DNA of 64,000 nucleotides, from contig JBHGAY010000024.1 of the NCBI GenBank assembly GCA_041946735.1, positions 6,114-70,113 on the forward strand, written 5' to 3'. The notes beneath the pieces are model-generated. The model was not told where the DNA came from. It saw only the letters and a program-made list of their open reading frames with translations, and made no database searches. This DNA comes from Candidatus Eiseniibacteriota bacterium (GTDB taxonomy: Bacteria > Eisenbacteria > RBG-16-71-46 > CAIMUX01 > VGJL01). How positions within the stretch are numbered: the first letter of the stretch is position 1; each line of letters begins with the position of its first letter. A program made the translations under genes and the position numbers. This document shows, in pieces, positions 32,731 through 56,733 of the stretch.

Positions 32731-32760
32731 AGCCGGAGAGCGCGATCCGATTCGAGGAAC

Positions 32761-32788: not shown

Positions 32789-32794
32789 CTTGCC

Positions 32795-33686: not shown

Positions 33687-34889
33687 CTACTCCGCCGCCA
33701 AGGCCTCCACCGGATCGAGGGAGGCCGCCCGGCGCGCCGGCAGGATCCCGCTCGCCAGCCCGACCACGAAGCTCACGCCGAGCGCGAGGAGCACGTAGAG
33801 GAGGGGCGTCCGCACGGGAAGCGCGGGAATCGCCGCGTGGATCAGCCGCGCGAGCCCGATGCCGGCGGCGAGCCCCAGAATCCCGCCGCCCGTCGAGAGG
33901 ACGAGCGCCTCGGCGAGGAAGAGCGCGAGGATCTGCCCCGGGGTGGCGCCGAGCGCCTTCTCGAGGCCGATCTCGGCGGTCCTCTCGTTGACCGAGATCC
34001 ACATCATCGTGAGGATGCCGATCGCGCCGACGAGCAGCGAGATCGCGCCGATTCCGACGACGGCGAGGCTCACGATCCGCAGGATGCGGTCGAGCGTCTC
34101 CAGCATCCCGGTCTGGGTCGTGATCGAGAAGTCCTCTTCCCCGTCGTGACGCTCCGCGAGCACCGCCTCGATCCGCGCCGAGACCGAGTCGACGACGGAG
34201 AGGTTCGAGAAGACGACGTCGATCTCGGTCAGTTCGTCCTTGTTGAAGAGCGGCATCGCGAGGGTCACCGGAATGTACGCAGCGTCGTCGATGTCGAAGC
34301 CGAGGAACTGCCCCTTCGGCTCCATCACTCCGATCACGCGGAATCTCTGCCCGCCGATCCGCACGTGCTCGCCGAGCGCGTTCTTCTCGCCGAACAGCTC
34401 GCGCTTGAGGGTCGGGCCGAGCACCGCCTCGGCGGATCCGCCGTACGCGCCGGCGTTGGGCAGGAAGCGGCCGACACGCACCGACATCCCCCATGCGGCC
34501 GCGGCGTCCCTCGTCGCGCCGTAGACGAAGACGCTGCGCGAACGCCCCGCGTACTCGACCGGCGCCGTCCCGACCGACGCCGGCACGACCGTCTGCACTC
34601 CCCGAACGCGGGTCACGGCTTCGGCGTCGCCGATCGTCAGGGGATGGACCGTCCCGCCGATCGCGGCCGGCACCCCCGTCGTCTCCGTCCTCCCCGGGTG
34701 GATGGCGGCGAGATTCGTCCCGAACTGCGTGAACTCCGACAGGATGTAGAGGCGCGTGCCCTCCCCGATCGACGTGAGCAGGATCACCGAGGCGATGCCG
34801 ATGAGGATTCCGAGCATCGTCAGGGCGGACCGTTGGCGGTGGCCGCGCACGGCGCGCAACGCCGAGCCGACGACGTCCTCGAAGATCAT
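33687..34889 (-). CDS. ABC transporter permease, FtsX/MacB family
   Basis: ALRAVRGHRQRSALTMLGILIGIASVI N-terminal TM helix, periplasmic domain, and C-terminal FtsX 4-TM bundle (ISLLVGAIGILTMMWISVNERTAEIG). Confidence 0.8.
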   Translation of the reverse strand: MIFEDVVGSALRAVRGHRQRSALTMLGILIGIASVILLTSIGEGTRLYILSEFTQFGTNLAAIHPGRTETTGVPAAIGGTVHPLTIGDAEAVTRVRGVQTVVPASVGTAPVEYAGRSRSVFVYGATRDAAAAWGMSVRVGRFLPNAGAYGGSAEAVLGPTLKRELFGEKNALGEHVRIGGQRFRVIGVMEPKGQFLGFDIDDAAYIPVTLAMPLFNKDELTEIDVVFSNLSVVDSVSARIEAVLAERHDGEEDFSITTQTGMLETLDRILRIVSLAVVGIGAISLLVGAIGILTMMWISVNERTAEIGLEKALGATPGQILALFLAEALVLSTGGGILGLAAGIGLARLIHAAIPALPVRTPLLYVLLALGVSFVVGLASGILPARRAASLDPVEALAAE

Positions 34890-36091
34890 CCCCGCCTCCG
34901 CATCAGGGCCTGGATCGGATCGAGACGCGCTGCGCGCCGGGCCGGCAGGATCCCGAACGCGAGCCCGACCGAAGTCGAGACGGCGAGCGCGGCGACGACC
35001 GCCCAGACGGGGGGACGCGCCGGAAAGTCCGGGAAGAAGCCCTGGAAGATCCGGCCCCCGAGGATGCCGATCGCGAGGCCGAGGATCCCGCCCGCGGTCG
35101 AGAGGATCGACGCCTCGAGCAGGAACACGGCGACGATCTGGCGGGAGCCGACGCCGACCGCCTTCAGCAGTCCGATCTCGCGGGTGCGCTCGGAGACCGA
35201 GACGAGCATCACGTTCATGATCCCGATTCCCGCCACCGAGAGCGAGATCGCGGCGATCCCGGCGAGAGCGGCGGTGAGCATCCCGAGGATCTTCTGGAAC
35301 GTCGAGAGGACCGCATCCTGCGTGAGCGTCGTGAAGTCCTCCTCGCCGTCGTGGCGCTGCTTCAGGATCTCGATCGCACGCTCCCGCGCCGGCTCGATCG
35401 CCGGCGCGCTTCGCAGCTCGATCAGCACACGGAAGAGGCTCCGGGCGTTGAGCAGACGCATGCCGGTCTCGATCGGGATGTGGACGGTCTCGTCCACGTC
35501 CATGCCGATCGAGGTGCCTCGCGGCGCGAGCACGCCGATGACGCGGAAGTTCGTGTCGCCGATCCGCACCTTCTCGCCCAGCGGATTGCGATGGCCGAAC
35601 AGCTCCTGCTGCACCTTGGCTCCCAGGACGGCGAACGGCGCGTCGCGCGTGCCCGGCGGGAAGTAGCGACCGATCCGCACCGACAGCTTGCGCACCTCGC
35701 GCATGTCGTCGGTCGTCCCAAGCACCATGATGTCTCGGCTCCGGTCGCCGACGCTCGCCGCGGCGCTGCCGACGACGAGCGGAGCGGCGCGCACGATCTC
35801 CGGCATCTGGCGCTCGAGCGCGCCGACGTCCTCGAGGGTCAGGTCGTGCGGCGCGGTGTTGACGACCGGCGCTCCGCCCTGCGTCTCCGTCTTGCCGGGC
35901 AGGAGAATCAGGAGGTTCGAGCCGAGCGACGCGAACTCACCGGTCACGTAGAGCCGCGCCCCTTCTCCGAGGCTCGTCAGGAGGACCACCGAGCCGACGC
36001 CGATCGCCACGCCGAGCAGCGAGAGGAAGCTCCGGAGGCGATGCCCGCGCAGCGCGCGCAGCGCGTAGCGCGCGAGATCGCGCGCCCTCAC
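34886..36091 (-). CDS. ABC transporter permease, FtsX/MacB family (second copy)
   Basis: Paralogous to the previous permease from [35 protein letters not shown] start overlapping the ATPase stop (GTGA). The upstream 200 aa of the track ORF are Arg/Gly filler. Confidence 0.7.
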
Positions 36092-36903
36092 GGCCGCTCC
36101 GTACCGGGCGCCGGAGACGCCGGCGGCGCCGGGAATGACGCCGGCGCCTGCTCCGGCGCCGGCGCCACCGCTCCGCTCCGCTGCCGTTCGTCGGCAACGA
36201 TCGCCCCGTCGCGCAGCCGGACGCCCCGAGCCGCCCGCGCTCCGATCGCCGGATCGTGCGTGACGATCACGAGCGTGAGCCCCGCCCGGTTGCGCTCCTC
36301 CAGGAGCCCGATGATCTCGCTCCCCGAGACGCTGTCGAGGTTGCCGGTCGGCTCGTCGGCCAGCAGGATCGCCGGCTCCATCACGACGGCGCGCGCGATC
36401 GCCACGCGTTGGCGCTCCCCACCGGAAAGCTGGTCCGGCCGGTGCTCCGCTCGCGGCGCGAGACCGACCGACTCGAGCGCCCGCGCCACGCGCCGCCGCC
36501 GATCGGCCGGCTCGACGCCGGCGAACATCATCGGCAGCTCGACGTTCTCCGCGGCCGTCAGGCGGGGCACCAGATGGAAGAACTGGAAGACGAAGCCGAT
36601 CTTCTCGCGGCGCACGAGCGACAGCTCGCGATCCGAAAGCTTCGACGTCTCCTGCCCGTCGAGACGGTAGGAGCCGGACGTCGGACGATCGAGGCATCCG
36701 ATGAGGTTCAGCAGCGTGGACTTTCCCGACCCGGAAGGTCCCATGATCGAGACGTACTCGCCGGCGCCGATCGAAAGGTCGACGCCGCGCAGCGCGAGCA
36801 CCGGGCGTCCGCCGACCTCGAAGGTCCGCGAGATTCCCGACAGCAGGATCATCGGCTCCGCCATCGCCCGCGCGCTCCGCTCGCTCACCTGACCCGCCGC
36901 CAC
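36088..36903 (-). CDS. ABC transporter ATP-binding protein (LolD/MacB-type)
   Basis: Walker [14 protein letters not shown]-loop, signature [14 protein letters not shown], Walker [13 protein letters not shown]. The start may be Met14 (36864) instead of the track start. Confidence 0.8.
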
Positions 36904-36906
36904 CGC

Positions 36907-38139
36907 CTAGCGGCGGGCCGTCCGCTCCGCCACGGTGGCCCGCACTCCTGCCTTCACCTCCGGACGGTCCAGCGAGACGACGACCTCCTCCCCCTCGCGC
37001 AGCCCTCCCGTGATCTCGGCGTACTCCCAGTTGCGCAGTCCGATCCGGACGGGACGGCTCACCAGCCTGCCCTTCTCGACCACGAGCACGCGATCCCCCT
37101 CGAGGAGCGCGTAGGTCGGGATCCGCACGACGTCCTCCTGCGCCTCGAGAATCACTTCGACGTCGGCGGAGAGCCCCGGCACGAGATTCCGTGGAAGATC
37201 CTGCTGCGTGAACGTCGCCTCGACGGTCAGCGTGCGGTTCTGCTCCTGGCGCGTCTCGACGAACGAGGAGATGTAGGTCAGCACACCGGGGAACTCCTGC
37301 CCGCGAAAGGCGTCCATCGTGATCCGCACCGGCAGTCCCAGATGGACCTTCGCCACATCGGCCTCATCCAGCGGCGCGCTCACGTAGAGCGAATCGGGAT
37401 CAATCAGATCGACGACGGGCGGGATCATCACCCCGGGCGGCGAGGGGGTGATCCATTCGCCGACCTCGGTCGTCACGTCGAGGACGACCCCGTCGAAGGG
37501 GGCGCGAATCACCGTCTTGTCGAGGGCCGCCTGCGCCGCTTCGACCGACGCCTGCGCCTGGCGCGTCTGCTCCCGCGCCGCCTCGCACCCCGCCGTCGCG
37601 ACTTCCGCGTTCGTCCGCGCCTCCTCGAGGCGCTGGTCCGCGATCAACCCCTGCGTCGCGAGCTGCTCGGCCCGCTCGCCGTCACGCCGCGCCTGATCCG
37701 CCGACGCGCACGCCTGTTCCGCCGCAGCGCGCGCCGCCGCGCGCGATCGGTCCGCCTGCGCGAACTGCGCGCGATACTCGGTGTCGTCGATGCGAAGCAG
37801 CACGTCCCCCGCCCGCACCCGTTGCCCTTTGCGCACCGGGATCGCGGCGACCAGCCCAGACACGCCCGGACTCATCTGCGAGCGCCGGCGGGACTCGACG
37901 GTCCCCGCTCTCGTGTTCACCACCGTCGACTCGACGCGGCCGCGCTCAACCGTCGCCACCGTGACGGGCACCGGCTCCGGACGAAAGACCGTCCACCGGA
38001 GGATGAGGACGACGAGGACGATTCCACCGAGAATCAGAAGCCTGCGTGTCCAACGGCTCACGGGAACCTCGCGTTCGATTGGGTCCTTCGGGGATCCTAA
38101 CAGGGGGGCGCAGGGCCGCAAGGCGTGGCGCGGTCGCAT
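36907..38139 (-). CDS. HlyD-family membrane fusion protein (periplasmic adaptor)
   Basis: N-terminal TM helix LLILGGIVLVVLILRW, Ala/Gln-rich coiled coil, and beta-barrel/MPD domains (VIRAPFDGVVLDV...). Confidence 0.75.
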   Translation of the reverse strand: MRPRHALRPCAPLLGSPKDPIEREVPVSRWTRRLLILGGIVLVVLILRWTVFRPEPVPVTVATVERGRVESTVVNTRAGTVESRRRSQMSPGVSGLVAAIPVRKGQRVRAGDVLLRIDDTEYRAQFAQADRSRAAARAAAEQACASADQARRDGERAEQLATQGLIADQRLEEARTNAEVATAGCEAAREQTRQAQASVEAAQAALDKTVIRAPFDGVVLDVTTEVGEWITPSPPGVMIPPVVDLIDPDSLYVSAPLDEADVAKVHLGLPVRITMDAFRGQEFPGVLTYISSFVETRQEQNRTLTVEATFTQQDLPRNLVPGLSADVEVILEAQEDVVRIPTYALLEGDRVLVVEKGRLVSRPVRIGLRNWEYAEITGGLREGEEVVVSLDRPEVKAGVRATVAERTARR

Positions 38140-39001: not shown

Positions 39002-39693
39002 GTTGCGCCTCCTCTTCCTTCGCCTCGCGCGCGATCGTCCGCGACACGGCGTCCGATCGGCGCCGCCGCGCCGCCGGCGTTCACGCGCCGGCCGAGCGCC
39101 GCGGCCTCGTGCTTCGCCCCGTCTTCGAGCGCCGCGCGGAGTTTCCGGCGCGCTCGCTGCAAGATCCCTCGCGCTCCCGACGCGGTGTCGATCGCGAGCA
39201 ATCGGGTGATCTCCTCGACCGGCAGCCCCTCGTAGCACCGCAGCCAGATCGCCTCGCGTTCGAGCGGATCGAGGTGCCGCCGAACGAGCGCCAGCACCGA
39301 CTCCTCGTCGAGCCTCTTCTCGAGCGTTTCGCTCGGATCGGGCGCCGGATCGGCCACGCGCTCGATCCCTTCTTCGTCCTCGTCGAACAGCGGCGAGGGC
39401 CGCCGCACGACGCTCAGGCAATGGTTGCGCGCGATCACGAAGAGCCAGGTCGCGAAGCAGCTGCGCCCTTCGTAGCCGGCGATCCCGCGGTACGCCTTCA
39501 ACAGCGAGTCCTGAGCCAGGTCGAGCGCCTGCTCGTGGTCCCGCACGATCCGGTAGCACCAGAGGTAGACACGCTCCCGGTAGCGCTCGAGGAGGACCGA
39601 GGCGGCCCGCCTCGCCTCCTCGCCCGCACGATCCTCGCGAGCGATGCAGACCAGCTCGGAGTCGTCGAGCAGCGCCAGATCTCGTTCGGTCAC
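38998..39693 (-). CDS. ECF-family RNA polymerase sigma factor
   Basis: C-terminal 231 aa of a 1273-aa track ORF: sigma-70 region 2 (LLERYRERVYLWCYRIVRDHEQALDLAQDSLLKAY) and region 4 (LDPLEREAIWLRCYEGLPVEEITRLLAIDTASGARGILQRARRKL). The start is placed at a GTG overlapping the upstream gene's TGA. Confidence 0.6.
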   Translation of the reverse strand: MTERDLALLDDSELVCIAREDRAGEEARRAASVLLERYRERVYLWCYRIVRDHEQALDLAQDSLLKAYRGIAGYEGRSCFATWLFVIARNHCLSVVRRPSPLFDEDEEGIERVADPAPDPSETLEKRLDEESVLALVRRHLDPLEREAIWLRCYEGLPVEEITRLLAIDTASGARGILQRARRKLRAALEDGAKHEAAALGRRVNAGGAAAPIGRRVADDRARGEGRGGAT

Positions 39694-42668
39694 CCCATGG
39701 GACGCTCGCTTTCTGAATCCGTCACGCGAACCGTTGCCTCCGGTCCAGGCGGCAGCGTCCGGCCCGCCGCCTCCGGCCGCTCCCCCGCCGCCGAGAATGA
39801 GCGCAACACGATGCCCAGCAGCACGAAGGCGGCGCCGCCGGCGAGGGCGAGCCGGCCCCAGGGCACAGGCCGGGCCGGTTGGATCGGGATCCGAAGGGAG
39901 CCGTCCCCCAGCACGACGAAGCCCGCCCAGAAGAACGGGTGGCGGGTGCGCGGGTCCTCGCGGATCGCCTCGCGCGCGCGCATCAGCGCGCCCGAAACCG
40001 TCGCCCCGCCGGCGAGCTCGTCGTAGAAGCATGCGGCGAAGCGTTGCGCCGCTTCGTCCTCGACCGGCCACAGGGTGGCGGCGACCGAGGAGGCGCCCGA
40101 GCAGAGGAGCGCAGTCGACAACCCCTGCATCCCCTCGCCCGAGACGATCGCCCCTCGCGCCGTGCGGCAGCACGACAGGACGGCCAGGCGTGCCGGAATG
40201 CGGGACGCGGCGATCGCCTTCGCGTGCAGCGGCCGCGCGCCGAGCGCGATCTCCGAGAGCCACGGGCGCCCGTCCTGTCCAAGCGCGTGCGCGGCGAAGT
40301 GGACGACGAGGCGCGGGGCGGCGAGATCGGCGAGGCCGAGCGTGTCGCGCGGCCCGAGGACTCGCAGATCGACCCCGCGATAGGCGCGCGCGATCCGCTT
40401 CGCCTCGCGCGCTGCGCCGGGCAGGCCGATCGTCCCTGCTTGGGGCGCGGCGACCGCCAGGATCGGTCTCGCGAGGAGCGCTTCCGCGCTGGCCGCGCTC
40501 GCGTCCGCGCCGGCCGCGCCCGCTTCCGCCGCCCGGGCTCCGGCCAGGATCGCGGGCGAGGCGATCCTCGTCCACTCGCGGTCCCGGCCGTCCCCTGCGG
40601 CATCGAACGACTCGAACGGGGCGAGGTGGGCGACGCCGTCTGCGGCGACGAGGATCCGATCGCTCTTCGCCACCCAGTCCCCCAGATCGGGGAGGAGCGC
40701 GCGGCAGAGCGCGGCGGCCGCCATCCGGCATTCGCGCACCCCGGCGCCTCGCGCGGAGTCCGGGCTCGCGAAGAGGTCGAGGACGAGCCGCACGCCCGGC
40801 TCGATCTCCCCTTCGGGAGGAAGCGAGCGGACGCAGCAGGAATCGCGCGTGAACGCGAAGAGCCAGCTCGCCCGGCCGCCGAGATGGTAGTCGAGGAGCA
40901 GCTCGCCGGGCTCGAGCGGCGGCAGGAGCGCCGACGCGGCCGCGCTGCGCGGCAACGCCGTCGCCGGCCCCGCGATCCGCTCGAGGAGCGTTCGCGCCTT
41001 GAAGACGGCGACCCGCTCGTACGCGGCGCGCACCGCGCTCGGTCCCGCCGCCTTCTCCGGATCGGCGCCGAGGAGAAGACCGGCCAGGCTCGTCGCGATG
41101 CTCCGTCCCGCGGCGCTGCGCTGTTCGCGCCACTCGGGATCGAGCGGCAGCCCGCGCTGCGCCTCCCAGACGCGAGCCGCGGCTTCGAGCGACGCGCGCG
41201 CGCTGTCCGGCCGCCCGAGATCGACGAACGCGCGCGCCAGCGCGAGGAGCGTCTCGAGCCGGACCGCATCGAGGCCCGGTCTGGCCGAGAGCCCAGCAGC
41301 GAGGCGCAGGGGCGCCAGCGCCTCCGCGGGCCGTCCCTCCTCGACACGCAGCTCGCCGAGCCGCGCTGCGAGCCTTCCTCTCTCCTCGGGACCGTCGATC
41401 TCCGCGCGCGCGAGCGCCCCTTCGAGGATTGCGATCGCCTCGGCCCTCTCCTGCGCGCTCTCGCACGTGCGGGCGAAGGCGGCGAGCGCCGCCGCCCGCG
41501 TCGCCGCCGGGGCCGGCGGATCCGCCGCGAGAATCTGACGGAAGATGCGGCGCGCCTCGCGCGTCCGGCCCTGCGACGCCCGTGTCTGCCCGAGCTGCCG
41601 TAACAGCTTCGCCCGCAGATCGCCGTATCCCTCCCGCTCGCAGATCGCGAGCATCGCCTCGAGCGAATCGCATGCCTGCTCCGGATCCCCGAGCTCCGCG
41701 GCGCAGAGGGCGAGATTCATCCCTGGGACGATCGACTCCCGCATCTCTCCGTAATCCCGATAGCTCGCCAGAGCCTCGTCGAACGCGGTCGCCGCTTTCG
41801 CCGGATCTCCGAGCCGGTACTCGAGAGTGCCGAGATTGTTGCGGGCGAGGCACGTCACCATCGGATACCGGCAGGAATCGGCGAGGACCGCCGCTCGCGC
41901 GAACTCCTCGCGCGACCGCTCGTAGGCGCCCGTTCTCCCGAGAGCCACGCCGCGCGAGTTCCGAGCCCACGCCTCGCCGCGCCGCTCCCCTCCTGCCCGG
42001 AAGAGCGCGATCGCGCGATCGAGCGTCGACGCCGCCTCCACCGCGCTGCCTCGCACGACCTGGTCCCACCCGATGCCGACGAGCGCCCAACCTTCCTGGA
42101 CGCGATCCCCGCGAAGGCGCGCGAGGACAGCAAGCGAGTCGTAGAGCGCGCGCGCCTCCTCGGTCCGTCCCTGATTGGCGACGGCGACCGAGAGCCAGCG
42201 GATCGCGACGCAGGCGGAGGCGGAATCGCCGCGTGCGCGCGCGATCGCGAGGCAACGACGGAGGATCGTCTCGCCTTCGCGCGCCGCGCCGATCGATGCG
42301 CGCAGCTCCCCCTCGCGGAGCCCGAGCCACAGCATCCGTCCCGAGTCGCCCTGCGCTTCGGCCTGCTCGCGCAGGCGCTCGATCGCGGGGAGCGCGGAGT
42401 CGGGCCGTCCGGCGAGACGGAGGCGCTCGACCCTCGCGAGATCCGGCGCGAGAGGGGTCGCAGGAGGGAGGAGCGGGCGCGGGCGCGACAACGCGCGCGA
42501 AGCCAGCGACGGCGCAGGCACCGCGGCGCAGGCGGCCCCGAAGGCGCCCGCGCAGGCGGCGGCGAACACGAGCGCGAGCGCGCAGGCGCCGCGGCGCAGC
42601 CGCAACGCTCGCTCGCCCTTCGCGATCGACCGCAGGGATCGCATGGCCGGTCGGCCGTCCAACGCCAA
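39690..42668 (-). CDS. TPR-repeat protein with C-terminal CHAT (caspase-like) domain and C-terminal TM anchor
   Basis: Signal peptide, about 500 aa of TPR-like repeats, then a CHAT domain: VVHFAAHA...LAVLSCCRTARG (His/Cys dyad), then the hydrophobic segment LALAGGAAFVLLGIVL. Confidence 0.7.
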   Translation of the reverse strand: MALDGRPAMRSLRSIAKGERALRLRRGACALALVFAAACAGAFGAACAAVPAPSLASRALSRPRPLLPPATPLAPDLARVERLRLAGRPDSALPAIERLREQAEAQGDSGRMLWLGLREGELRASIGAAREGETILRRCLAIARARGDSASACVAIRWLSVAVANQGRTEEARALYDSLAVLARLRGDRVQEGWALVGIGWDQVVRGSAVEAASTLDRAIALFRAGGERRGEAWARNSRGVALGRTGAYERSREEFARAAVLADSCRYPMVTCLARNNLGTLEYRLGDPAKAATAFDEALASYRDYGEMRESIVPGMNLALCAAELGDPEQACDSLEAMLAICEREGYGDLRAKLLRQLGQTRASQGRTREARRIFRQILAADPPAPAATRAAALAAFARTCESAQERAEAIAILEGALARAEIDGPEERGRLAARLGELRVEEGRPAEALAPLRLAAGLSARPGLDAVRLETLLALARAFVDLGRPDSARASLEAAARVWEAQRGLPLDPEWREQRSAAGRSIATSLAGLLLGADPEKAAGPSAVRAAYERVAVFKARTLLERIAGPATALPRSAAASALLPPLEPGELLLDYHLGGRASWLFAFTRDSCCVRSLPPEGEIEPGVRLVLDLFASPDSARGAGVRECRMAAAALCRALLPDLGDWVAKSDRILVAADGVAHLAPFESFDAAGDGRDREWTRIASPAILAGARAAEAGAAGADASAASAEALLARPILAVAAPQAGTIGLPGAAREAKRIARAYRGVDLRVLGPRDTLGLADLAAPRLVVHFAAHALGQDGRPWLSEIALGARPLHAKAIAASRIPARLAVLSCCRTARGAIVSGEGMQGLSTALLCSGASSVAATLWPVEDEAAQRFAACFYDELAGGATVSGALMRAREAIREDPRTRHPFFWAGFVVLGDGSLRIPIQPARPVPWGRLALAGGAAFVLLGIVLRSFSAAGERPEAAGRTLPPGPEATVRVTDSESERPMG

Positions 42669-47881: not shown

Positions 47882-49171
47882 ATGCGAAGACGAGGCCTCT
47901 GGATTCTCCTCGGCACGGTGCTGCTCGCTGCCGCGGTCGTTCTGCTCTCCGGATTCCCGCTGACCGGCAAGGTCAAGATCCCCACGGCGAAGGTGCGGAA
48001 GGGCGATTTCCTGATCTCCCTGAAGGCGACCGGCGAGGTCCAGGCCAAGCGGGCCTACACCGTCGTCGCCCCGCGCATCCGGAACATCCAGATCACCTGG
48101 ATGGCCCCGGAGGGGAGCATGGTCAAGGCCGGCGACGCGGTCATCCGCTTCGACTCCAGCCAGCAGCAGGCCGATCTGGCGGAGAACCAGTCGTCCCTCC
48201 AGATCAGCCAGACCGCGCTCCAGCGGCAGAAGACGGAGTACGAGATCCAACAGAAGGAGCTTTCGCTCGAGCTGCGTCGCGCCCAGCGAGCCTACGACGA
48301 GCAGAAGCACGAAGCGCCGAAGGTCGCCGAGGAGGCGCGGCTCGCGCTCGAGCTCGCCGAGCTGAACGCGAAGGCGAAGCTCGACCAGATCGAGGCCGAC
48401 ATCCGCAAGGCGGAGCTCGAGGTGCAGCGCGCCGAGGACAAGGTCGACCTCGCCCAGAAGGAGCTCGACCAGATGACGCTGACCGCCCCGATCCCGGGGA
48501 TGGTCGTCTATCTCGAGATCTGGAAGGGAAGCACCATGGGGAAGGTCCAGGAGGGCGACTCTCCCTGGCCGGGACAGGGATTGATCAACCTGCCCGACCT
48601 GGGCGAGATGATCGTCAACGCGACGGTCTCCGAGGTGGACGCGAGCCGCGTCGACGCCGGCCAGGAGGCTCTCGTCACGCTCGACGCCTTCCCTGACGTC
48701 CGCTTCCAGGGGAAGGTGACCCGCAAGGGAACGCTCGCGCGCCGCAAGGAGCCCGACTCGAAGATCAACGTCTTCGACGTCGAGATCGCGATCGACGACG
48801 TCGACGAGCGCCTGAAGCCCGGAATGTCCGCTTCCGCTCAGATCGTCGTCGACAAGATCCCCGACGTCGTCTCGGTCCCGCTCGAGGCGGTGTTCGAGTC
48901 GGCCGGCTCGCCGGTCGTCTACCTCGAGAATCGCAAGCCGCACACCGTCGCGGTCGGCCGCCGCAATGACATGGAGATCGAGATCACCTCGGGACTCGCC
49001 GGCGACGAGACGATCTGCCTCGTCGACCCGAAGATCGCGCGCCACGGCCTCCCCGGGGATCGCGCCACCGAGCCGGAGCTGAACCGCGGTCGGACCGCCC
49101 CGTCTCCCGCTCCCACAACGTCCGAGCCGGCCGCGGCCCCCGCGCGACGCGGCCGGGCGAAGTCCGGATGA
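47882..49171 (+). CDS. HlyD-family membrane fusion protein
   Basis: N-terminal TM helix, long coiled coil (Gln/Ala/Glu-rich), then LTAPIPGMVVYLEI and a beta-barrel domain. Confidence 0.75.
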   Translation: MRRRGLWILLGTVLLAAAVVLLSGFPLTGKVKIPTAKVRKGDFLISLKATGEVQAKRAYTVVAPRIRNIQITWMAPEGSMVKAGDAVIRFDSSQQQADLAENQSSLQISQTALQRQKTEYEIQQKELSLELRRAQRAYDEQKHEAPKVAEEARLALELAELNAKAKLDQIEADIRKAELEVQRAEDKVDLAQKELDQMTLTAPIPGMVVYLEIWKGSTMGKVQEGDSPWPGQGLINLPDLGEMIVNATVSEVDASRVDAGQEALVTLDAFPDVRFQGKVTRKGTLARRKEPDSKINVFDVEIAIDDVDERLKPGMSASAQIVVDKIPDVVSVPLEAVFESAGSPVVYLENRKPHTVAVGRRNDMEIEITSGLAGDETICLVDPKIARHGLPGDRATEPELNRGRTAPSPAPTTSEPAAAPARRGRAKSG

Positions 49172-50475
49172 TCGACACCGGCCTGGTCTTCCGGCTCGCC
49201 ATCGAGTCGCTTGCGGTCCACAAGCTCCGCACCGCTCTCACCATGCTCGGTGTGATCTTCGGCGTCGCCGCCGTCGTCTCGATGCTCTCGATCGGCGAGG
49301 GGGCGAAGCGCGAGGCGATGCAGCAGATCTCGATCCTCGGAATCGACAACATCATCGTCGAGGCGCGCGTCCCGATCTCCGAGAAAGGGACAGACGAGAC
49401 ATTCCAGCGTTCCCCCGGCCTCGGGCTCGCGGACGCCGAGAACCTCCGCCTCTACGACGATCTGATCTCCAACGTCGTGCCGCAGCGATTCGAGACGCCT
49501 GCGACGATCCGAAGCGGGTCGATCGAGGCGCCGGTGCGGGTCGTCGCCACCACACCGAACTTCACCATCTCCTCCTCGATCGAGGTCGAGGGCGGCCGCT
49601 TCCTGACCGATGGCGACATGGCGGAGTTCGCGCAGGTCTGCGTCCTCGGCGCGAAGGCGCGTCGCGCGCTCTTCGCCTTCGACGATCCGCTCGGACGGAT
49701 CGTGCGCATCGCCGATCTCGACTTCACCGTGGTCGGCGTGATGGCGGACAAGTACATCGGCCGCGGGAAGGTCGAAGGGCTCGAGCTTAAAAACCTGAAC
49801 GAGGACGTCTACATCCCGTTCTCGACGGCGGTCAAGAAGCTCGAGCGCGCGGGAATGACGACGCGATCCGACCCGCGCCACTACTTCGGCGACCGCTCGA
49901 ACGAGCCGCAGCGCAACTACAACATTCCCGAGATCGACCAGCTCACGATCACCGTGAGCGACCTCGATTTCGTTCCCGCGGTGACGCTCCTCGTGCGGCG
50001 CGTCCTCGAGCGGCGCCACGGCGGAATTGCCGACTACGACGTGATCGTCCCGGAGTCGCTGCTCCGGCAGTCGCAGAAGACGCAGCAGATCTTCAACATC
50101 GTCATGGGCGCGATCGCCGGCCTCTCGCTCCTGGTCGGCGGCATCGGAATCATGAACATCATGCTCGCGACGGTCCTCGAGCGGACGCGCGAGATCGGGA
50201 CGCGCCGGGCGGTCGGAGCGACGCGCGGCGACATCCTCCGTCAGTTCCTGCTCGAAGCGGTGGTGATCTGTCTCGTCGGCTGCCTGGTCGGCCTCGTCGT
50301 CGGGCTCTCCCTCTCGAAGGGGATCAGCCTCTACGCCGGATGGCCGACGATCGTCTCGCCGTTCGCGATCCTGCTCGCGATCGGCGTCTCGACGGCGGTC
50401 GGGCTCATCTTCGGCGTCTATCCCGCTCGCAAGGCGGCCCGGTTGCACGTGATCGAGGCGCTCCGCTACGAGTGA
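49168..50475 (+). CDS. ABC transporter permease, FtsX/MacB-like (DevC-like)
   Basis: LRTALTMLGVIFGVAAVVSMLSIGEGA, periplasmic domain, and C-terminal FtsX bundle (GLSLLVGGIGIMNIMLATVLERTREIGTRRAVGAT). ATGA overlap with the MFP stop. Confidence 0.8.
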   Translation: MIDTGLVFRLAIESLAVHKLRTALTMLGVIFGVAAVVSMLSIGEGAKREAMQQISILGIDNIIVEARVPISEKGTDETFQRSPGLGLADAENLRLYDDLISNVVPQRFETPATIRSGSIEAPVRVVATTPNFTISSSIEVEGGRFLTDGDMAEFAQVCVLGAKARRALFAFDDPLGRIVRIADLDFTVVGVMADKYIGRGKVEGLELKNLNEDVYIPFSTAVKKLERAGMTTRSDPRHYFGDRSNEPQRNYNIPEIDQLTITVSDLDFVPAVTLLVRRVLERRHGGIADYDVIVPESLLRQSQKTQQIFNIVMGAIAGLSLLVGGIGIMNIMLATVLERTREIGTRRAVGATRGDILRQFLLEAVVICLVGCLVGLVVGLSLSKGISLYAGWPTIVSPFAILLAIGVSTAVGLIFGVYPARKAARLHVIEALRYE

Positions 50476-50581
50476 CGCGTTCGAGTCGGCCGGTCGCCGC
50501 GGTGATCCGCGACGCCGTGTCGCTGTCCTTTGGGGTCTCTGTCTCTTGGGGTCTCTGTCTCTCCTCGCGAGGTTGCACGCC

Positions 50582-52087
50582 ATGTTCGAAGCGAATTCCC
50601 TCCGCTGCCGTTTGCTCATGCTCTGCACCGTCGCCGTGGTCGCGGCCGCGGCCGCCGTCGGCTTCTCTCCCGGGCTCGGACGCGCGCAGCCGATGACGCT
50701 CGACGAGGCAATCGACCAGGCGATCCATCACTCCTCCCGCGGGGCGATCCTCGAGGAGACGGAGCGGATCGCGGAGTCGAGCTACCGGGCGAAGAAAATC
50801 AACTTCTACGTTCCGTTGATCACGATCAACGGCGCGCTCCCCTCCTACGACGTCGACCAGTCCTACAAGTTCTTCGGCGGCTCGACGCGCAAGCAGCTGT
50901 ACAAGACGAGCGATTTCCGGATGAACAGCTTCATCAAGCTCGAGCAGAGCCTGCTGACCGGTGGAAGCCTCGCGATGTCGGCGAACCTGAACCGGTCGCA
51001 GAGCCGCTACCCCGACACGAACCCGGAGGTGCCGAGCGGCAGCTTCCTCGACGAGAACGGACGGCAGGGGTACTTCGAGTTCCGGCTCACGCAGCCGATC
51101 TTCAAGCCCTCGACGCTGAAGAACGAGCTGCTCGACCGGACGGAGAACCTCGAGCTGGCGCGGATCGGACGGCGCGAGGAGGAGGCGGCGCTGCGCAAGG
51201 AGGTGGCCGAGGCGTTCCTCGGCTTGATCGAGGCGGAGGTGCAGGACTCCATGCAGGCGCTCACGCTCGATGCCGCGAGCCTCAAGGCGGAGATCGATTC
51301 GGTCAAATGGCAGGACGGTGTGATCGCGGAGGAGGCGCGGCTCGAAGCCGCCTCCGCGAAGCTCGACGCCGAGCTGGCGCGCCGGGAGGCGACCGACAAG
51401 CTGCAGGAGCAGCAGCGGGCGCTGGCGCTGCTGCTCGACAGGCCGGTCGAGGGGACGTTGCAGTTGGTGGAGCCGGAGGCGGGTGAGGCGCTGTCGGCGG
51501 AGCAGTTGTTGAAGATGAAGTCCGGCTGGGAGAAGTCGCTGCCGGTGCGGCGGGCGCTCGAGAACCGCTCGCGCTCGAAGCGGATGGCATCCTACACCGC
51601 CAAGGGAAAGAGCCTGACCGGCGACTTGACCGCCAGCTACGCCGCCGGCCGCGGCAAGGTCAGCCTCGAGGACCGTCCCGACGAGGACATCAACACGAAC
51701 GGCTGGGGCGTCTCGCTGAACCTCTCCTACCCGATCTGGGACGGTGGATCGGGGAGCGCCGCCACGCAGGCGGCCCGCGCCGAGGCGAACCGGGCCGAGC
51801 TGGAGCTGGTGCAGGCGAAGCAGGCGGCGCAGGCGGAGATTGCACGCCTCGTGCAGCAGGTGGACGTCGGGTACCGGAGGCTGGGGATTCAGCAGAGCCG
51901 GGTGAAGCTCGCTGACGACAAGCTCGCGATCGCGAGGGAGCGCTTCGCCGACGGACGGATCTCGACGCTGCAGCTCCGCGAGGCGGAGATCGACCGGCTG
52001 GAAGCACGGGCTGGGTACCTGGCGGAGCTGAAGACGTACCTCGGGAACAAGATCACGCTGGAGGGCAGCTTCGCCGGTCAGGAGTAG
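50582..52087 (+). CDS. TolC-family outer-membrane efflux protein
   Basis: From Met13: signal peptide, two OEP repeats with coiled-coil heptads (ELELVQAKQAAQAEIARL...), about 500 aa. Confidence 0.7.
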   Translation: MFEANSLRCRLLMLCTVAVVAAAAAVGFSPGLGRAQPMTLDEAIDQAIHHSSRGAILEETERIAESSYRAKKINFYVPLITINGALPSYDVDQSYKFFGGSTRKQLYKTSDFRMNSFIKLEQSLLTGGSLAMSANLNRSQSRYPDTNPEVPSGSFLDENGRQGYFEFRLTQPIFKPSTLKNELLDRTENLELARIGRREEEAALRKEVAEAFLGLIEAEVQDSMQALTLDAASLKAEIDSVKWQDGVIAEEARLEAASAKLDAELARREATDKLQEQQRALALLLDRPVEGTLQLVEPEAGEALSAEQLLKMKSGWEKSLPVRRALENRSRSKRMASYTAKGKSLTGDLTASYAAGRGKVSLEDRPDEDINTNGWGVSLNLSYPIWDGGSGSAATQAARAEANRAELELVQAKQAAQAEIARLVQQVDVGYRRLGIQQSRVKLADDKLAIARERFADGRISTLQLREAEIDRLEARAGYLAELKTYLGNKITLEGSFAGQE

Positions 52088-52119
52088 GTGGTTGCCGGCC
52101 GGCTCCTGGTTGATCGAGC

Positions 52120-52192
52120 AAGCAGGCAGGTAGGTAGGTAGGTAGGCAGGTAGGTAGGTAGGCAGGTAGGTAGGTAGGTAGGTAGGTAGGCG
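52120..52192. repeat. tetranucleotide microsatellite (AGGT)n with a few AGGC variants, about 17 units
   Basis: Read directly: gcaggcaggtaggtaggtaggtaggcaggtaggtaggtaggcaggtaggtaggtaggtaggtaggtaggcggg, immediately 3' of the TolC-family gene. Confidence 0.9.
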
Positions 52193-52260
52193 GGAACGCG
52201 AGCAGGCGAGCGAGGCAGGATTCGAGTGAAAGGGCAGTGCCGGCAGGCACGGCGCTCCTC

Positions 52261-52440
52261 GGCGGGATCGCGCCGGCGGCCTCGCCCGAGGGATCGGCGC
52301 TCGCTGGGAGAAGACGGACGGCCGTCGCTCGCGCCTCTAGTTCGCCGCGCGAGTGACTCCCTACCGGCTGCAAGGGTGGCAGCCCACGCGCGTCGAACGC
52401 GTCCCTCGGGCCGAGGCCTCACCGGGCGCTCCCCGCCGCA
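52261..52440. repeat. left arm of a ~180-bp inverted duplication
   Basis: The reverse complement of 52261..52440 aligns to 52696..52875 at about 93% identity, checked base by base. Confidence 0.8.
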
Positions 52441-52695
52441 GATCGATCCGCTGAGCACATCTCCCCCCCACACACACTATTTGGGCCGCGCGCCGTCCGA
52501 GTGACGGAAGACCGAGCGGCGCGCGCCCTCGCTCGCGCGAACAATCACCACGCAAACCGGTCGGCCTTGCCCGCGCGGCTCGACAGCCGCCGGAATCTCA
52601 CGAATGCCTCGATGAAGGTGGCACACACACGGGAGAGGGCACGGGATGCCACTACACCAGACCGCTGTCGAGTGGAAGGCGCGGCACTGCCCTAT

Positions 52696-52875
52696 GGCGG
52701 CGGGGAGCGCCCGGTGAGGCCTCGCCACGAGGGACGCGTTCGCCGCGCGGTAGCCGCCACCCTGCAGCCGGTAGGGAGTCACTCGCGCGGCGAACCAGAG
52801 GCGCGAGCGACGACCGTCCGTCTTCTCCCCGCGAGCGCCGATCCCTCGGGCGAGGCCGCGGGCGCGATCCCGCCG
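52696..52875. repeat. right arm of the ~180-bp inverted duplication (255-bp spacer between the arms)
   Basis: As above. A short direct repeat CCCGCCGCAGATCGATCC follows each arm, and a second direct repeat (CCCGCGCGGCTCGACNGCCGCCGGA) occurs in the spacer and again after the right arm. Confidence 0.8.
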
Positions 52876-52948
52876 CAGATCGATCCTCGGAAGACATCCC
52901 TTCCCACATGCGCTATTCGCCCGCGCGGCTCGACCGCCGCCGGACGCG

Positions 52949-53962
52949 TCACAGCCGCGCGCGCACCAAGGCGATCGCGTCGGCGGCGTCGGGCGGGACC
53001 GCCACGTCGGGCGCGATCCCCTCGGCGTCGACGGAGAAGCCGGGGAGCCAGCGGGCGCGGCTCATCGGGACGACGAGGATCGCGGCGCCGGACGGCAGCC
53101 GCACCCGGCGCAAGTTGGAGTAGTCGAGGGAGCCGCGGGTGTTCTCGCCGAAGAGGCGGACCTTCCCGCTCTGGCGCGCGAGGAGCGCGAACGCTTCCGC
53201 GGCGCTCGCGCAGCGCCGGTCCATCAGGATCCCGATCCGCTCGGGCAACGGGTGCAGCTCGTCGAAGGTATCGATGCGGTCCGGTGGACCGTCGACGAAC
53301 GTCCCGGGCGCGGCCTCCATGCGAGCGGCGAGGTCGCATAGATACGTCACGTATTCCGCCGGCATCCCCGGTTGCGCGGCATAGCTGCGGATGCACGCGG
53401 CGTTCGCCGGCGTCGCCCAGTAGTCGCAGCCGGTCACGCGGATCGGACCGGTCGCGATCCAAGGCAGCAGCGACTCGAACGTCGCGTCGCTGCCGCCCCC
53501 GTTGCCCCGGATGTCGATCAGGAGGACTGGCGTGCGCGAGAGCTCCTCGCGGGCGGCGGCGAGCAGCGCATCGAGCCGCTCCCGCACCGGCGCCCCAAAG
53601 GTTGGGATCGTGAGAAGCAGCGCCTCGTCGTCGAGGCGGGCGAGCGTCGGATCGAGACGCCCTGCCGCGACGTCCCGCTCGAAGCGCTCCTGACCCGTCG
53701 CCGACGAGAGGCCGAGGTGGCGGTCGCGGAAGAAGACCAGCCAGGAGCGGAGGATCTCGATCCGCTCGTCTGGTGATCCGCGTGAGGAGAGGATCGAAGC
53801 TCGGACCGACTCCGTGAGAACGCCAAGCTCCGCCTCGCGGCCGCGCACCTTGTCGCGGTAGCCGGCGTAGTTCCTCGACACCTCGTCGAGCACGCAGGCG
53901 AAGTCGGGAGGATCGCCGTCGCGGGCGAGACGATCCTCCGACCGGTGTCCGGCTTCGCTCAC
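52949..53962 (-). CDS. S41-family serine peptidase domain protein
   Basis: LLIDIRGNGGGS motif, a downstream catalytic-region-like segment, and a tail-specific-protease-like fold. GTG start overlapping the upstream gene's TGA (GTGA). Confidence 0.6.
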   Translation of the reverse strand: MSEAGHRSEDRLARDGDPPDFACVLDEVSRNYAGYRDKVRGREAELGVLTESVRASILSSRGSPDERIEILRSWLVFFRDRHLGLSSATGQERFERDVAAGRLDPTLARLDDEALLLTIPTFGAPVRERLDALLAAAREELSRTPVLLIDIRGNGGGSDATFESLLPWIATGPIRVTGCDYWATPANAACIRSYAAQPGMPAEYVTYLCDLAARMEAAPGTFVDGPPDRIDTFDELHPLPERIGILMDRRCASAAEAFALLARQSGKVRLFGENTRGSLDYSNLRRVRLPSGAAILVVPMSRARWLPGFSVDAEGIAPDVAVPPDAADAIALVRARL

Positions 53963-56733
53963 CGGAGCAGGGTCACCTTGCGGATCGCCTCCGTAGAGGC
54001 GGAGCGGATCCGAAGGAAGTAGATCCCGGGCGCGGCGGCGCGGCCCGTCGCCGTGCGGCCGTCCCACGCGGGGACGCCGCCGCTCTGCGGCCCGTCGATC
54101 GTGCGCCGCGCGACGAACCGTCCCGCCGGATCGACCACGTCGATCGTCGCCGACGCGCCGCGCGGAAGCTCCATCTCGAGATCGAACGCGCCGCGGCCCG
54201 GATTGGGAAGCGCGCGCCCGATGCGCAGCGCGAGCGCATCCGCCGGATCCTCGGGGAACGTGTAATCCCAGTCCTCATCGAGCAGCGGGATCGAGTCGTC
54301 GGCGATCCGAATCCGGTTGCCGGCGTAGGCGAGGAGGACGAACCCGCTCGTGTCTGCCGCAGCGGGGCAGGTGGACTGCGCCATCTCACTGATCGTGAAG
54401 CCGTCGCCGTCGATGACGACGCCGTCCCTCGCGATTCGATTCCCGAAGATCCCGCGTTCGGGATAGGCGCGGGACCAGGTTACGAAGTACTGGTTGCCGT
54501 CCCAGATGCCGTCGACGGCGCCGGGAGTCCCGGGCATCCGGCTCACCTCGATGCCGCCGGGATCCAGCAGGGCCCCGTTCTCGTCGAAGCGCGCCGCGTA
54601 GACGTCGTGCTCTCCCCCGCCGCCCGCTCGTTCCACCGAGAAGAGGGCGAGGCTCTGCCGGTCGCCGCGGAGCAGCCACAGGCTGCTATGCGAGAGGCCG
54701 AGCTCGGGAAACAGCGACGTGCCGGTGATCTCCTCGCCCGGCGCCGCCGGATCGACGATGGCGGCGTAAACGCGGTTGCCGGAATCGGTCGCGTGCAATC
54801 CCAAGAGGAGCAGACGGCCTCCCGTGAGCGGGGCGAGTGTCGCCGCCTGGGTCGTCGTGTCCGGCATCACCGTCCATCGACGCAGGCGCTCTCCTGCCGG
54901 ATCGATCAGGTCGACCCGGATTCCCGGGCTCTGCGTGTTGCGGTCCGGCGTGTAGTCGTACGCGAAGAAGATCGAGTCAGGTCGCTCCACGAAGTCGCAG
55001 CGACCGACGGCCGGGATGGCGCCGTATCCGCCTTGGTGCGCAACGACGGTCGAGACGAATCGCTCCCGCAGACCATCCAGGCCGATGCGATCGATGGCCA
55101 CGATGAAGTCGTTGCTGTATTCCCCGAGTTGGCCGGACCAACCCTCGCTTCGCACGTATCCGATCGAAACCCCGGTTCGGTCCGCTCGCGACCGGAGCGA
55201 GGAGGTGCGCGCCCAATCGCAGTTGTCCATCCAGTCGCAGTCGGAATGCTCCGACGGGCCGCTCCATCGGTCGGGCGTGTCGGTGAGCTGGCCCTCCGCA
55301 TCGAAAGCGAAACGGTGGTAGAAGCCTCCCTCCCGGTTCAACAGATGCGGCTCGCCGCTCCCCCAGAGCGGAATCGCATACAAAGGATGCGTCCCTACGT
55401 TGAGGCGCAAGGGCTCCGGCTCGATTGGCAGCCCTTCCAGGGGCACCCATTGCAGGAGAACCGGGTTCTCCGGGGGCCAGGGCATCGCCGGCTGGCCCGC
55501 CGGCTCCTTGCTCACCGGCAGCTCCATGGTCGTGGACCAGATCACGGCGAAACGTTCCCCGGTCCACCGGCACGCGACGTTCCGCGGATCCTCCGGCTGC
55601 GCGCAGGGAGATTCGGTCACCAGCTCGACCGGCTCGGGATCGAGGCTCTCCTGATCGAGGCCGATCCGCGTCACGAGGATCCGGCCGTCCCAGTCACGCG
55701 TGGTTCGCCACGCGAGCAGCGCGACGCTGTCGGCGGCGCAGACGTCCAGGCCCATGTCGGCGGTCGAGTCGATCGTGAGAGGACCGGGCGCGATCGGCGC
55801 GCCGGTCGCGTCGAGGAGAGCGACCTCGATCCCATCCCCGGTGGTCCACGCGGCGACCCAGCGATCCGCGAATCGCGCGACCGCTACCTCGGGAGGTCCC
55901 CACGTCCCCGTCGCTTCCCCGAGGGCAACCGGCGATCCCGCCGGCAGACCGTCCTGTCCCAGAGGTTGCGCGTGAGTTTCGCGGCCGTCTCCGACGTAGA
56001 GGACCATCCCTCCCGCATCGGACATCGCGAGGTCGAGCGCCATTTCGGGCAGATCGCTTGCGAGGACGTGCGGCGACGGATCGATCGCCTCGAGTCCGGG
56101 CGTGACGCGCGTGAGGAGCAGGCGATAGGGAGAGCGTTCGCCCTCCAGCCACGCGATCACGTGCGCCCCTTCCTCGTCGACCGCATTCGGAGCGAAGGCG
56201 ATCGACGGCATCCGGACTTCGGCGACGCCGGGCGGCACGACGTCGACCGTCGCCGTCGCCTCGAGGGTCGCGGGATCGAAGGCACGCACGCGAAGGCCGG
56301 GGAGGTCGATGTCGTACGACGGGGAGAATGCGAAAGCCATCTTCCATCCCGAGCCATCGGGATCGGAGAAGTCGATCCCGTCGATCCACCCGTCCTCCTC
56401 TCCGCGGAGAGGCTGGTGGGCGTTGTCGATCTCCTCACCGGCCGGGCTCTTGCGGTAGCCGTAAGCAGCGTCGGCGCCCTGTTCGATGAAGGCCAACAGG
56501 ACCTCGGACGGCGAAACGCCGATCGCGCACGCCGTCGGATAGTAGACGGTTTCGCCGTACCGGAAGCCATGATCGAGGACGATCTCCTCCGTCATACTCG
56601 GCGGGCTGGCGAAGGCGGCCGGCGCGAGCAGGAGCGGGAGCGCCAGTGCCACCACAAGAACGGCGAGAACGGTGAGAGCGGACGAAACGACGAAGGTCGG
56701 TACGGCGACGAAGAAAACTGCGGCCGGGCGCAT
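53959..56733 (-). CDS. large secreted repeat (beta-propeller-like) protein with C-terminal T9SS/FlgD-Ig-type sorting domain
   Basis: From Met40 (GGAGG Shine-Dalgarno): signal/TM segment, about 800 aa of W/G/D-rich repeats, and a C-terminus NPGRGAFDLEMELPRGASATIDVVDPAGRFVARRTIDG...WDGRTATGRAAAPGIYFLRIRSASTEAIRKVTLLR matching the Por-secretion CTD / FlgD Ig-like consensus. Confidence 0.6.
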   Translation of the reverse strand: MRPAAVFFVAVPTFVVSSALTVLAVLVVALALPLLLAPAAFASPPSMTEEIVLDHGFRYGETVYYPTACAIGVSPSEVLLAFIEQGADAAYGYRKSPAGEEIDNAHQPLRGEEDGWIDGIDFSDPDGSGWKMAFAFSPSYDIDLPGLRVRAFDPATLEATATVDVVPPGVAEVRMPSIAFAPNAVDEEGAHVIAWLEGERSPYRLLLTRVTPGLEAIDPSPHVLASDLPEMALDLAMSDAGGMVLYVGDGRETHAQPLGQDGLPAGSPVALGEATGTWGPPEVAVARFADRWVAAWTTGDGIEVALLDATGAPIAPGPLTIDSTADMGLDVCAADSVALLAWRTTRDWDGRILVTRIGLDQESLDPEPVELVTESPCAQPEDPRNVACRWTGERFAVIWSTTMELPVSKEPAGQPAMPWPPENPVLLQWVPLEGLPIEPEPLRLNVGTHPLYAIPLWGSGEPHLLNREGGFYHRFAFDAEGQLTDTPDRWSGPSEHSDCDWMDNCDWARTSSLRSRADRTGVSIGYVRSEGWSGQLGEYSNDFIVAIDRIGLDGLRERFVSTVVAHQGGYGAIPAVGRCDFVERPDSIFFAYDYTPDRNTQSPGIRVDLIDPAGERLRRWTVMPDTTTQAATLAPLTGGRLLLLGLHATDSGNRVYAAIVDPAAPGEEITGTSLFPELGLSHSSLWLLRGDRQSLALFSVERAGGGGEHDVYAARFDENGALLDPGGIEVSRMPGTPGAVDGIWDGNQYFVTWSRAYPERGIFGNRIARDGVVIDGDGFTISEMAQSTCPAAADTSGFVLLAYAGNRIRIADDSIPLLDEDWDYTFPEDPADALALRIGRALPNPGRGAFDLEMELPRGASATIDVVDPAGRFVARRTIDGPQSGGVPAWDGRTATGRAAAPGIYFLRIRSASTEAIRKVTLLR

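Follow-up and report, generated by a model that had tools for sequence, protein, structure and literature searches.

The gene-free interval between two convergent genes in this Candidatus Eisenbacteria genome carries two opposed copies of a non-coding, hairpin-forming repeat, an arrangement that is best read as an ordinary genome feature. The repeat unit, here called module P, is itself an imperfect palindrome of 179 nt, and its two copies face opposite ways next to two directly repeated copies of the same tail sequence (T). The object is, in other words, a discrete module flipped next to the same tail and not a plain inverted duplication of a DNA stretch. It belongs to a known class, that of palindromic intergenic repeats and template-switch products. 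The explanation favoured here, with a confidence somewhat short of even, is that a P-T unit was duplicated locally, that one P was flipped, and that the pair, if it has a function, serves both transcripts as a 3'-end hairpin or barrier. All coordinates refer to the window, the whole 64-kb stretch of DNA that was analysed, which has a G+C content of 70% and comes from a "Candidatus Eisenbacteria bacterium" MAG.

The convergent gap and its inverted arms

The gap extends from 52088 to 52948 (861 bp) between the stop codons of two genes that point towards each other. To its left lies a TolC/OEP outer-membrane efflux gene (50582-52087, plus strand; Pfam OEP, E = 2.5e-27), whose 501-aa product is NCBI MFB3909502.1. 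It is the final gene of an operon in which it is preceded by an HlyD gene (47882-49171) and a MacB-type permease gene (49168-50475). To the right, on the minus strand, a gene for an S41-family peptidase (52949-53962; 337 aa, NCBI MFB3909503.1, Pfam Peptidase_S41, P0001 being 100% identical) comes after a gene with an FlgD_ig domain. As the two accessions are consecutive, the NCBI annotation also has no gene in the gap. The mRNA of the OEP gene would continue into the first arm of the inverted repeat, and that of the S41 peptidase gene into the second. The wider neighbourhood consists of efflux, peptidase, FlgD_ig, aldehyde dehydrogenase, GntR, ABC, AKR and CHAT-TPR genes, and Pfam also assigns window ORFs to heme biosynthesis, LigD, a Dam-like methylase and a second MacB-type system. 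No tyrosine or serine recombinase and no transposase was found among the window ORFs scanned with Pfam.

Arm 1 (copy P1) occupies positions 52260-52438 of the plus strand, measures 179 nt and has the ends CGGCGGG...CCCGCCG. Arm 2 (copy P2) occupies positions 52698-52875, measures 178 nt and is inverted, its minus-strand reading being 93% identical to arm 1 on the plus strand. Trimmed to their truly matching ends, the arms differ by 11 substitutions and one indel (93.3% identity) and enclose a spacer of 259 bp, or 257 bp by the limits of the repeat-finder. These values bear out an earlier note on this DNA, which had described an inverted duplication of about 180 bp and 93% identity in a gene-free interval of about 860 bp. 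Before trimming, the repeat appears as two adjoining inverted pairs, 52253-52375 with 52760-52882 (123 nt, 93%) and 52373-52439 with 52697-52763 (67 nt, 90%), which are divided by the 1-nt indel alone. The self-inverted BLAST match of the region against the window has an E-value of 7.6e-104, and the runner-up inverted pairs within 1.5 kb, taken over the whole 64-kb window, reach at most 39 nt and 78% complementarity. Chance is thereby excluded as a source of the inverted repeat, and the arms are as unusually long as the note had held them to be.

The inverted duplication is genuine and has been confirmed independently. A 2,328-bp contig (JAUCQG010000038.1) of assembly GCA_030372885.1 aligns without gaps to window positions 50646-52958 at 99.57% identity and is collinear across arm 1, the spacer and arm 2, the arrangement and orientation being the same in both assemblies that span the locus. 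The 10 SNPs in this contig identify it as belonging to a different strain. In addition, the Logan assembly of SRR29307520 contains a contig that agrees with the window at 100% from 63962 to 52766 and covers the outer 117 nt of arm 2, variants specific to this arm included. The contig ends exactly at a 33-nt stretch common to both arms, the longest exact stretch that they share and thus the expected break point for a k = 31 graph. Fold-back joins made during assembly yield identical arms. The differences at 12 positions, together with the second assembly and the Logan contig, show that the structure is not an assembly artefact.

A palindromic module beside a direct repeat

Taken singly, each arm is an imperfect palindrome. 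BLAST aligns arm 1 with its reverse complement over 210 nt at 63% (E = 1e-6), and when folded alone arm 1 reaches -115 kcal/mol (z = -2.9), its complement -120 kcal/mol (z = -3.4). The corresponding values for the two strands of arm 2 are -122 and -124 kcal/mol. The terminal inverted repeats of P, CGGCGGG...CCCGCCG, match at seven of seven positions; the adjoining bases match in part, and the repeat is prolonged as an imperfect stem about 45 bp long. Of the four half-arms, three match a pattern of CGGCGGG, 8-14 nt, GGCCTCG, 0-1 nt and CCCGAGGGA, which is found at no other place in the window. If one transcript covered both arms, these would pair into a duplex of about 180 bp, as the earlier note had expected of the region if transcribed. 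In silico, the whole region as a single transcript folds at -515 and -546 kcal/mol on the two strands, compared with about -331 to -353 kcal/mol for the sum of the local folds.

The two copies were also compared for signs that the structure is maintained. RNAalifold renders every substitution between them compatible with a common fold. This compatibility was rejected as support for the structure, being judged a fitting bias after a randomisation test. Measured against the stems of the single-sequence MFE folds and against random placement, the substitutions of this two-copy set show no significant pattern on either strand (p = 0.05-0.9). The apical part of the MFE fold differs between the copies, the basal stem of about 45 bp being all that they have in common. 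No covariation support is claimed for the structure of P.

P does not code for protein. Two ORFs that run across the arms, of 92 and 85 aa, were considered as genes. They are ruled out by the G+C content of the arms, which is flat over the codon positions, as against a GC3 of 0.87-0.93 in real genes nearby, and by the indel, which breaks the frame. A six-frame chimeric protein query across P retrieved no homologue. ORFs in the spacer are not on record as called genes.

On the plus strand, both arms are followed on their right by directly repeated DNA, tail T. Its first part, T1a (52439-52485), recurs as T2a (52876-52921) with 34 of 46 positions identical (74%), a score matched by none of 2000 shuffles. 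Both copies begin with an identical CAGATCGATCC, and the 18 nt across the P-T junction are also the same in both; neither this junction nor T occurs elsewhere in the window. In the right-flank alignment, T1 then contains an insertion of about 84 nt relative to T2 (52486-52568), and the spacer fold places a 13-bp G+C hairpin at 52483-52529. Beyond the insertion, the repeat resumes with T1b (52569-52594), whose counterpart T2b (52919-52944) ends 4 nt before the stop codon of the S41 gene. The T-b copies agree at 25 of 26 positions and are exactly the two matches present in the window, a number reached in none of 100 shuffles. The remaining spacer (52595-52697) has no counterpart elsewhere in the window, and the fold of the spacer as a whole is no better than that of shuffled sequences (z = 0.19). 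To the left of the arms, a candidate direct repeat (TCGAGTGRAAGG...) was dismissed as not significant, its score being matched by 141 of 2000 shuffles.

The end signatures of P, GGGATCGCGCC and GGGGAGCGCCC, are exchanged between the copies up to the terminal 7 nt. Since the right flanks are direct repeats while the P copies oppose each other, P is a discrete 179-bp module that has been flipped relative to its flank. The module and its tails also differ in divergence: 11 of 178 positions are mismatched in P and 12 of 46 in T-a (Fisher p = 3.5e-4), which amounts to 6-7% for P and 26% for the tails. As the copies of P are so much more alike than the tails, P must be younger than they are, or have been converted, or be under constraint.

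No target-site duplication borders either copy (...GCTCCT before P1 and CAGATC... after it; ...CTATGG before P2 and CAGATC... after it). The composite of both arms and the spacer has none either, its outer flanks GCGCTCCT and CAGATCGA being unrelated.

The palindromic nature of each arm and the direct repetition of the two right flanks are points beyond the description in the earlier note. The short direct repeats that the note had mentioned near the arms and in the spacer are found again in T-a and T-b, and they do point to a recombination-type origin, as had been suggested there.

Origin of the flipped pair and its possible effect on transcripts

Under the favoured explanation, a P-T unit would have been duplicated locally, and one P would later have been replaced by, or converted to, its reverse complement. 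A late replacement of this kind would explain why the copies of P are far more alike than the adjoining tails. The flip itself could have come about by template switching during replication at P's own terminal inverted repeats (CGGCGGG...CCCGCCG), a route that would explain the absence of a target duplication, the absence of a recombinase and the younger age of P relative to T. A local origin looks likely because P and T occur nowhere else in the window, no target duplication is present, and no transposase or recombinase was found among the window ORFs.

Template switching is reported to create RNA hairpins (PMC8794818) and, between imperfect inverted repeats, to homogenise the arms and invert the spacer (PMC8604942). 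More broadly, switching at such repeats is described in PMC8604942, PMC8794818 and PMC7202029 as flipping the intervening DNA and as making or maintaining long hairpins. Products of this process come without a recombinase and without a target duplication, as at this locus. The described events, however, mostly involve tens of bases, whereas the flipped segment here measures 179 bp and the switch would have taken place in perfect repeats of 7 nt.

Comparison with relatives also speaks for a local origin. The closest relatives of the TolC protein, found in JGI, ENA and Logan metagenomes, are 59-63% identical and are encoded in the same HlyD-MacB-OEP operon. They lack such a gap, the next gene being 3 to 78 nt away, and no S41 gene is present. 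The gene after OEP is Rce1-like in one relative; in another it is Ada/AlkA, followed by MGMT and further genes. The nearest homologue of the S41 peptidase is only 41% identical. Relatives that lack the gap and have different neighbours imply a lineage-specific synteny breakpoint.

Two points weigh against this account of the origin. With two copies, a duplication followed by a flip is indistinguishable from two insertions of a mobile element. Furthermore, only the right side shows a clean tandem unit, the similarity of the left flanks not being significant.

As for the consequence, arm 1 on the plus strand equals arm 2 on the minus strand. Because the flanking genes are convergent, both mRNAs would carry P RNA of the same sense, beginning 172 nt past the OEP stop codon and 73 nt past that of the S41 gene. 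The P hairpin (-115 to -124 kcal/mol) could pause or stop RNA polymerase or shield the 3' end, and the duplex of about 180 bp formed upon read-through would be a plausible substrate for RNase III.

A role of P at 3' ends is plausible in view of two observations. The first is a second convergent gap in the window, at 18859-18987, where a long G+C hairpin is again present (-90.5 kcal/mol, z = -3.9), so that convergent 3' ends with large hairpins recur in this genome. The second is the low divergence of the gap between the two strains. Only 2 of its 861 sites differ (52817 and 52830, both in arm 2), compared with six synonymous and two non-synonymous differences in the adjacent OEP coding region. 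Relative to the 6 of 354 synonymous sites that differ there, divergence in the gap is lower by a factor of about 7 (Fisher p = 0.009, based on 8 SNPs in all from two strains), which hints at constraint or at a different history.

Against a 3'-end role stand the absence of a U-tract after the hairpins and a terminator scan that came back empty. A structural constraint receives no support from the substitutions, which neither avoid nor compensate the stems beyond what random placement gives. The locus may be a mere tolerated rearrangement scar.

A further-reaching version of the 3'-end role sees the flipped pair as a selected two-way transcription insulator with a dsRNA fail-safe, maintained by purifying selection. 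Each mRNA would be capped by a hairpin of the same sense and about 180 nt, and any read-through of both copies would produce dsRNA of about 180 bp and lead to its destruction. The version draws on the roughly 7-fold lower divergence of the gap relative to synonymous sites and on the far better conservation of P than of its tails, and we consider it very unlikely.

If the ordinary reading is true, the locus is of little consequence, one more pair of palindromic repeats where a rearrangement took place in a phylum that has been poorly sampled. Its weight would be greater if P were a repeat family widespread in Eisenbacteria, or a structure selected to act at 3' ends or as an insulator, for it would then show how organisms with 70% G+C and without canonical U-tract terminators end convergent transcripts.

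Mobile elements and other alternatives

The strongest competitor of a local duplication and flip is the view that P is a small non-autonomous MITE of the ERIC or Correia kind that inserted twice, in opposite directions, beside a preferred target T. P is indeed small, non-coding and intergenic, carries terminal inverted repeats and folds into a hairpin; its copies are younger than their flanks, and both P-T junctions are identical over 18 nt. The terminal inverted repeats on a short non-coding unit are a MITE trait, whereas the target-site duplication, another such trait, is absent at both copies. Besides, there is no third copy in 64 kb, T is confined to this locus in the window, and no transposase was found among the window ORFs. 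The form of P thus suits a MITE, but none of the features that define mobility is seen here, and a pair of MITE insertions is judged rather unlikely. The earlier note had proposed the remnant of a foldback mobile element. In that form the proposal is not supported: of the traits of a foldback composite transposon, an outer target-site duplication is absent, and extra copies were found neither in the window nor in the collections searched.

These searches covered a wide range of material. The 64-kb window holds no further copy of P besides the two adjacent arms. An arm 21-mer, taken from within the 33-nt exact repeat that breaks short-k assemblies, had no match in metagenome contigs or in 185,579 species-representative genomes, among which neither MAG of this species is included. 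A gapped pattern of the terminal repeats gave 9 and 6 matches in the species genomes and the JGI metagenomes. As relatives of P these were discarded, since they were single matches from unrelated G+C-rich taxa, mostly coding and without extension, and are attributed to chance. Three scans of viral contigs (IMG/VR) yielded no match or chance matches, and blastn against plasmid (PLSDB) and phage records found no match. The few matches of the junction 18-mer were likewise single, unrelated and non-extending. A one-frame HMMER search of 1.84 billion proteins matched only repetitive giant proteins, for example an HYR-like adhesin. These were rejected as P-derived ORFs because they are unrelated to P. 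Likewise, neither the six-frame query nor the one-frame HMMER search found spuriously called ORFs over P-like elements elsewhere. All these negative results speak against a MITE with a sensitivity limited to near-identical DNA or translated ORFs, which a genome-specific repeat family could escape. Publications on Eisenbacteria and on long inverted repeats of bacteria yielded nothing specific to this locus.

The best-known families of small palindromic elements resemble P in form. The ERIC/IRU elements and the ERIC-type elements of Yersinia, imperfect-palindrome MITEs of about 127 bp, are likewise non-coding, of similar scale and located in intergenic or 3' positions. ERIC elements occur in either orientation relative to the neighbouring gene and form a family with a consensus, dispersed in tens to hundreds of copies. 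P, by contrast, is seen in only two adjacent copies without relatives in the searches, the likeness claimed being one of form. Correia elements number more than 100 copies, end in terminal inverted repeats of 26 bp and duplicate a TA target, whereas P has neither a target duplication nor other copies in the window. Nevertheless, no analogue comes closer to a module flipped between unchanged flanks than the reported in-place inversion of Correia elements. In Neisseria, these elements (CREE/NEMIS) carry terminal inverted repeats and give rise to hairpin RNA that is cleaved by RNase III, and they are reported to undergo inversion in place (PMC10969869). ERIC elements are transcribed within mRNAs, where their hairpin affects the fate of the message (PMC10969869). 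The MITE view also gains from the general habits of such elements, which are reported to cluster and to sit at intergenic and 3' UTR sites, their hairpins in 3' regions being cut by RNases (PMC10969869).

Other classes fit less well. REPINs and bidirectional intrinsic terminators share with this locus the placement of inverted palindromes or hairpins between convergent genes, where they act on both transcripts. REP units measure about 20-40 nt, are closely spaced and require a RAYT transposase. The unit at this locus measures 179 nt and its spacer 259 nt, further copies are missing from the window, and neither a RAYT gene nor any other Y1-transposase-like gene was found among the window ORFs scanned. 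Intrinsic terminators combine a short hairpin with a U-tract; no such site was found here, P being a 179-nt hairpin without a T-run. P can be assigned to no family, and no function is demonstrated for it.

The locus could, alternatively, hold two convergent genes, each for a structured small RNA some 180 nt long, or give rise to one long hairpin RNA from the whole repeat. The strong folds would suit such an RNA, as would the lower divergence of the gap between strains than of neighbouring synonymous sites. Against it, Rfam gave no match in the window at gathering thresholds, and at E-values up to 10 it gave four noise matches of 15-19 bits, compared with cut-offs of 36-70. Searches for tRNA and tmRNA found nothing. 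No sigma-70-like site was detected at 51800-53200 with a model that may not represent the promoter type of this phylum, and terminator-like sites numbered zero, with no U-tract or T-run after the P hairpins. The two-copy structure test was negative, homologues that would allow an analysis of covariation are lacking, and the apical MFE fold differs between the copies. A small RNA is therefore judged highly doubtful, and the structured ncRNA proposed in the earlier note, which has no Rfam match and no significant result in the two-copy test, is not upheld.

Even less probable, and indeed barely tenable, is an invertible switch in which the arms recombine to flip the 259-bp spacer or a site-specific recombinase flips P. 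The inverted-repeat geometry would fit, and P does occur in both orientations relative to the same flank. However, the nearby tyrosine or serine recombinase that characterises an inverton was not found among the window ORFs, and a sigma-70-like scan, which is weak for this phylum, detected nothing promoter-like in P or the spacer. The two spanning assemblies share one arrangement, and the arms have diverged by 7%, a difference that would tend to disappear under frequent recombination or gene conversion. As both flanking genes face inwards, a flipped promoter would moreover make antisense RNA only. The invertible segment considered in the earlier note is not supported, given that no recombinase was found among the ORFs scanned, that no sigma-70-like promoter was detected and that both assemblies show a single orientation.

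Finally, an assembly artefact (a chimeric fold-back join, as does arise in metagenome assemblies) or the remnant of a duplicated protein-coding gene (long ORFs do cross the arms) is close to refuted, the former by the 12 differing positions, a longest exact shared stretch of only 33 nt, the same layout in the second-strain assembly and the arm-2-specific variants kept in the Logan contig, and the latter by the flat codon-position composition, the frame-shifting indel and the six-frame query without a homologue.

A tetranucleotide microsatellite, (AGGT)n, lies between the OEP stop codon and arm 1 (52124-52190; 16.8 copies, TRF score 113, 92% matches), and another Logan contig (L022) terminates within it. 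For practical purposes, caution is advised, as the arms and this adjoining microsatellite break short-k assemblies at precisely this locus.

The CGAGTG hexamer and strain divergence in the gap

The 861-bp gene-free gap (52088-52948) separates the convergent genes for TolC (plus strand) and the S41 peptidase (minus strand) and harbours five copies of the hexamer CGAGTG, versus 0.35 expected from its window-wide frequency. Four lie on the plus strand (52223, 52350, 52498 and 52669) and one on the minus strand (52780). Three of the five are located outside the arms, the two inverted copies of hairpin module P: two of these precede an arm (52223 upstream of arm 1, 52669 upstream of arm 2), and the third (52498) falls within the hairpin loop of the spacer.

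Between the window and L002, a short contig of a second strain (JAUCQG010000038.1), only 2 of the 861 sites of the gap differ, compared with 6 of 354 synonymous sites in the adjacent TolC gene (50646-52087; Fisher p = 0.009). Half of the eight coding differences in TolC (4/8) are clustered in the first 65 nt of L002. At its 3' end (2314-2328), the deposited contig terminates with CTGTCTCTTATACACA. This sequence is that of the Nextera transposase adapter, so the final 15 bases are contaminating adapter and do not belong to the genome.

Features bordering the gap

Directly 3' of the TolC stop codon lies an (AGGT)n tetranucleotide microsatellite (52124-52190; 16.8 copies, 92% match). Its copy number is the same in L002, and the Logan contig L022 (SRR25629172) breaks within it.

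The longest open reading frame of the S41 gene (372 aa) extends 109 nt into the FlgD_ig gene upstream of it (53959-54067). The annotated product of 337 aa starts at 53962, which reduces the overlap to 4 nt, a pattern typical of coupled genes.

Other repeats, hairpins and gene content of the window

Another convergent gap, between the DUF1028 and nicotinate phosphoribosyltransferase genes (18859-18987), contains a roughly 100-nt G+C hairpin. Its folding energy is -90.5 kcal/mol (z = -3.9), and it overlaps 2.6-3.5 tandem copies of the 16-nt unit CGCGCGCCGGAGCTGC. A different 16-nt tandem repeat, GTCTCTGTCTCTTGGG (2.8 copies, 50519-50562), lies between the gene for the MacB-type permease and the start codon of TolC. 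A second long gap of the window (956 bp, 32731-33686), between the genes for a multihaem cytochrome c and a MacB-type permease, contains a 20-nt tandem repeat (5.8 copies, 32806-32923) and a 21-nt tandem repeat (3.2 copies, 33582-33650); the one open reading frame tested there had no Pfam match.

The gene content recorded during the recombinase scan comprises a heme biosynthesis cluster (hemA, C, D, B, L, E, N and H with a protoporphyrinogen-oxidase-like gene, 2687-14514), a D12-class adenine methyltransferase (26061-27161), a full-length LigD with phosphoesterase, ligase and primase-polymerase domains (28882-31851), a second set of HlyD/ABC/MacB-type genes, two of which encode permeases (33687-38139), and a CHAT-TPR protein (39690-42668).
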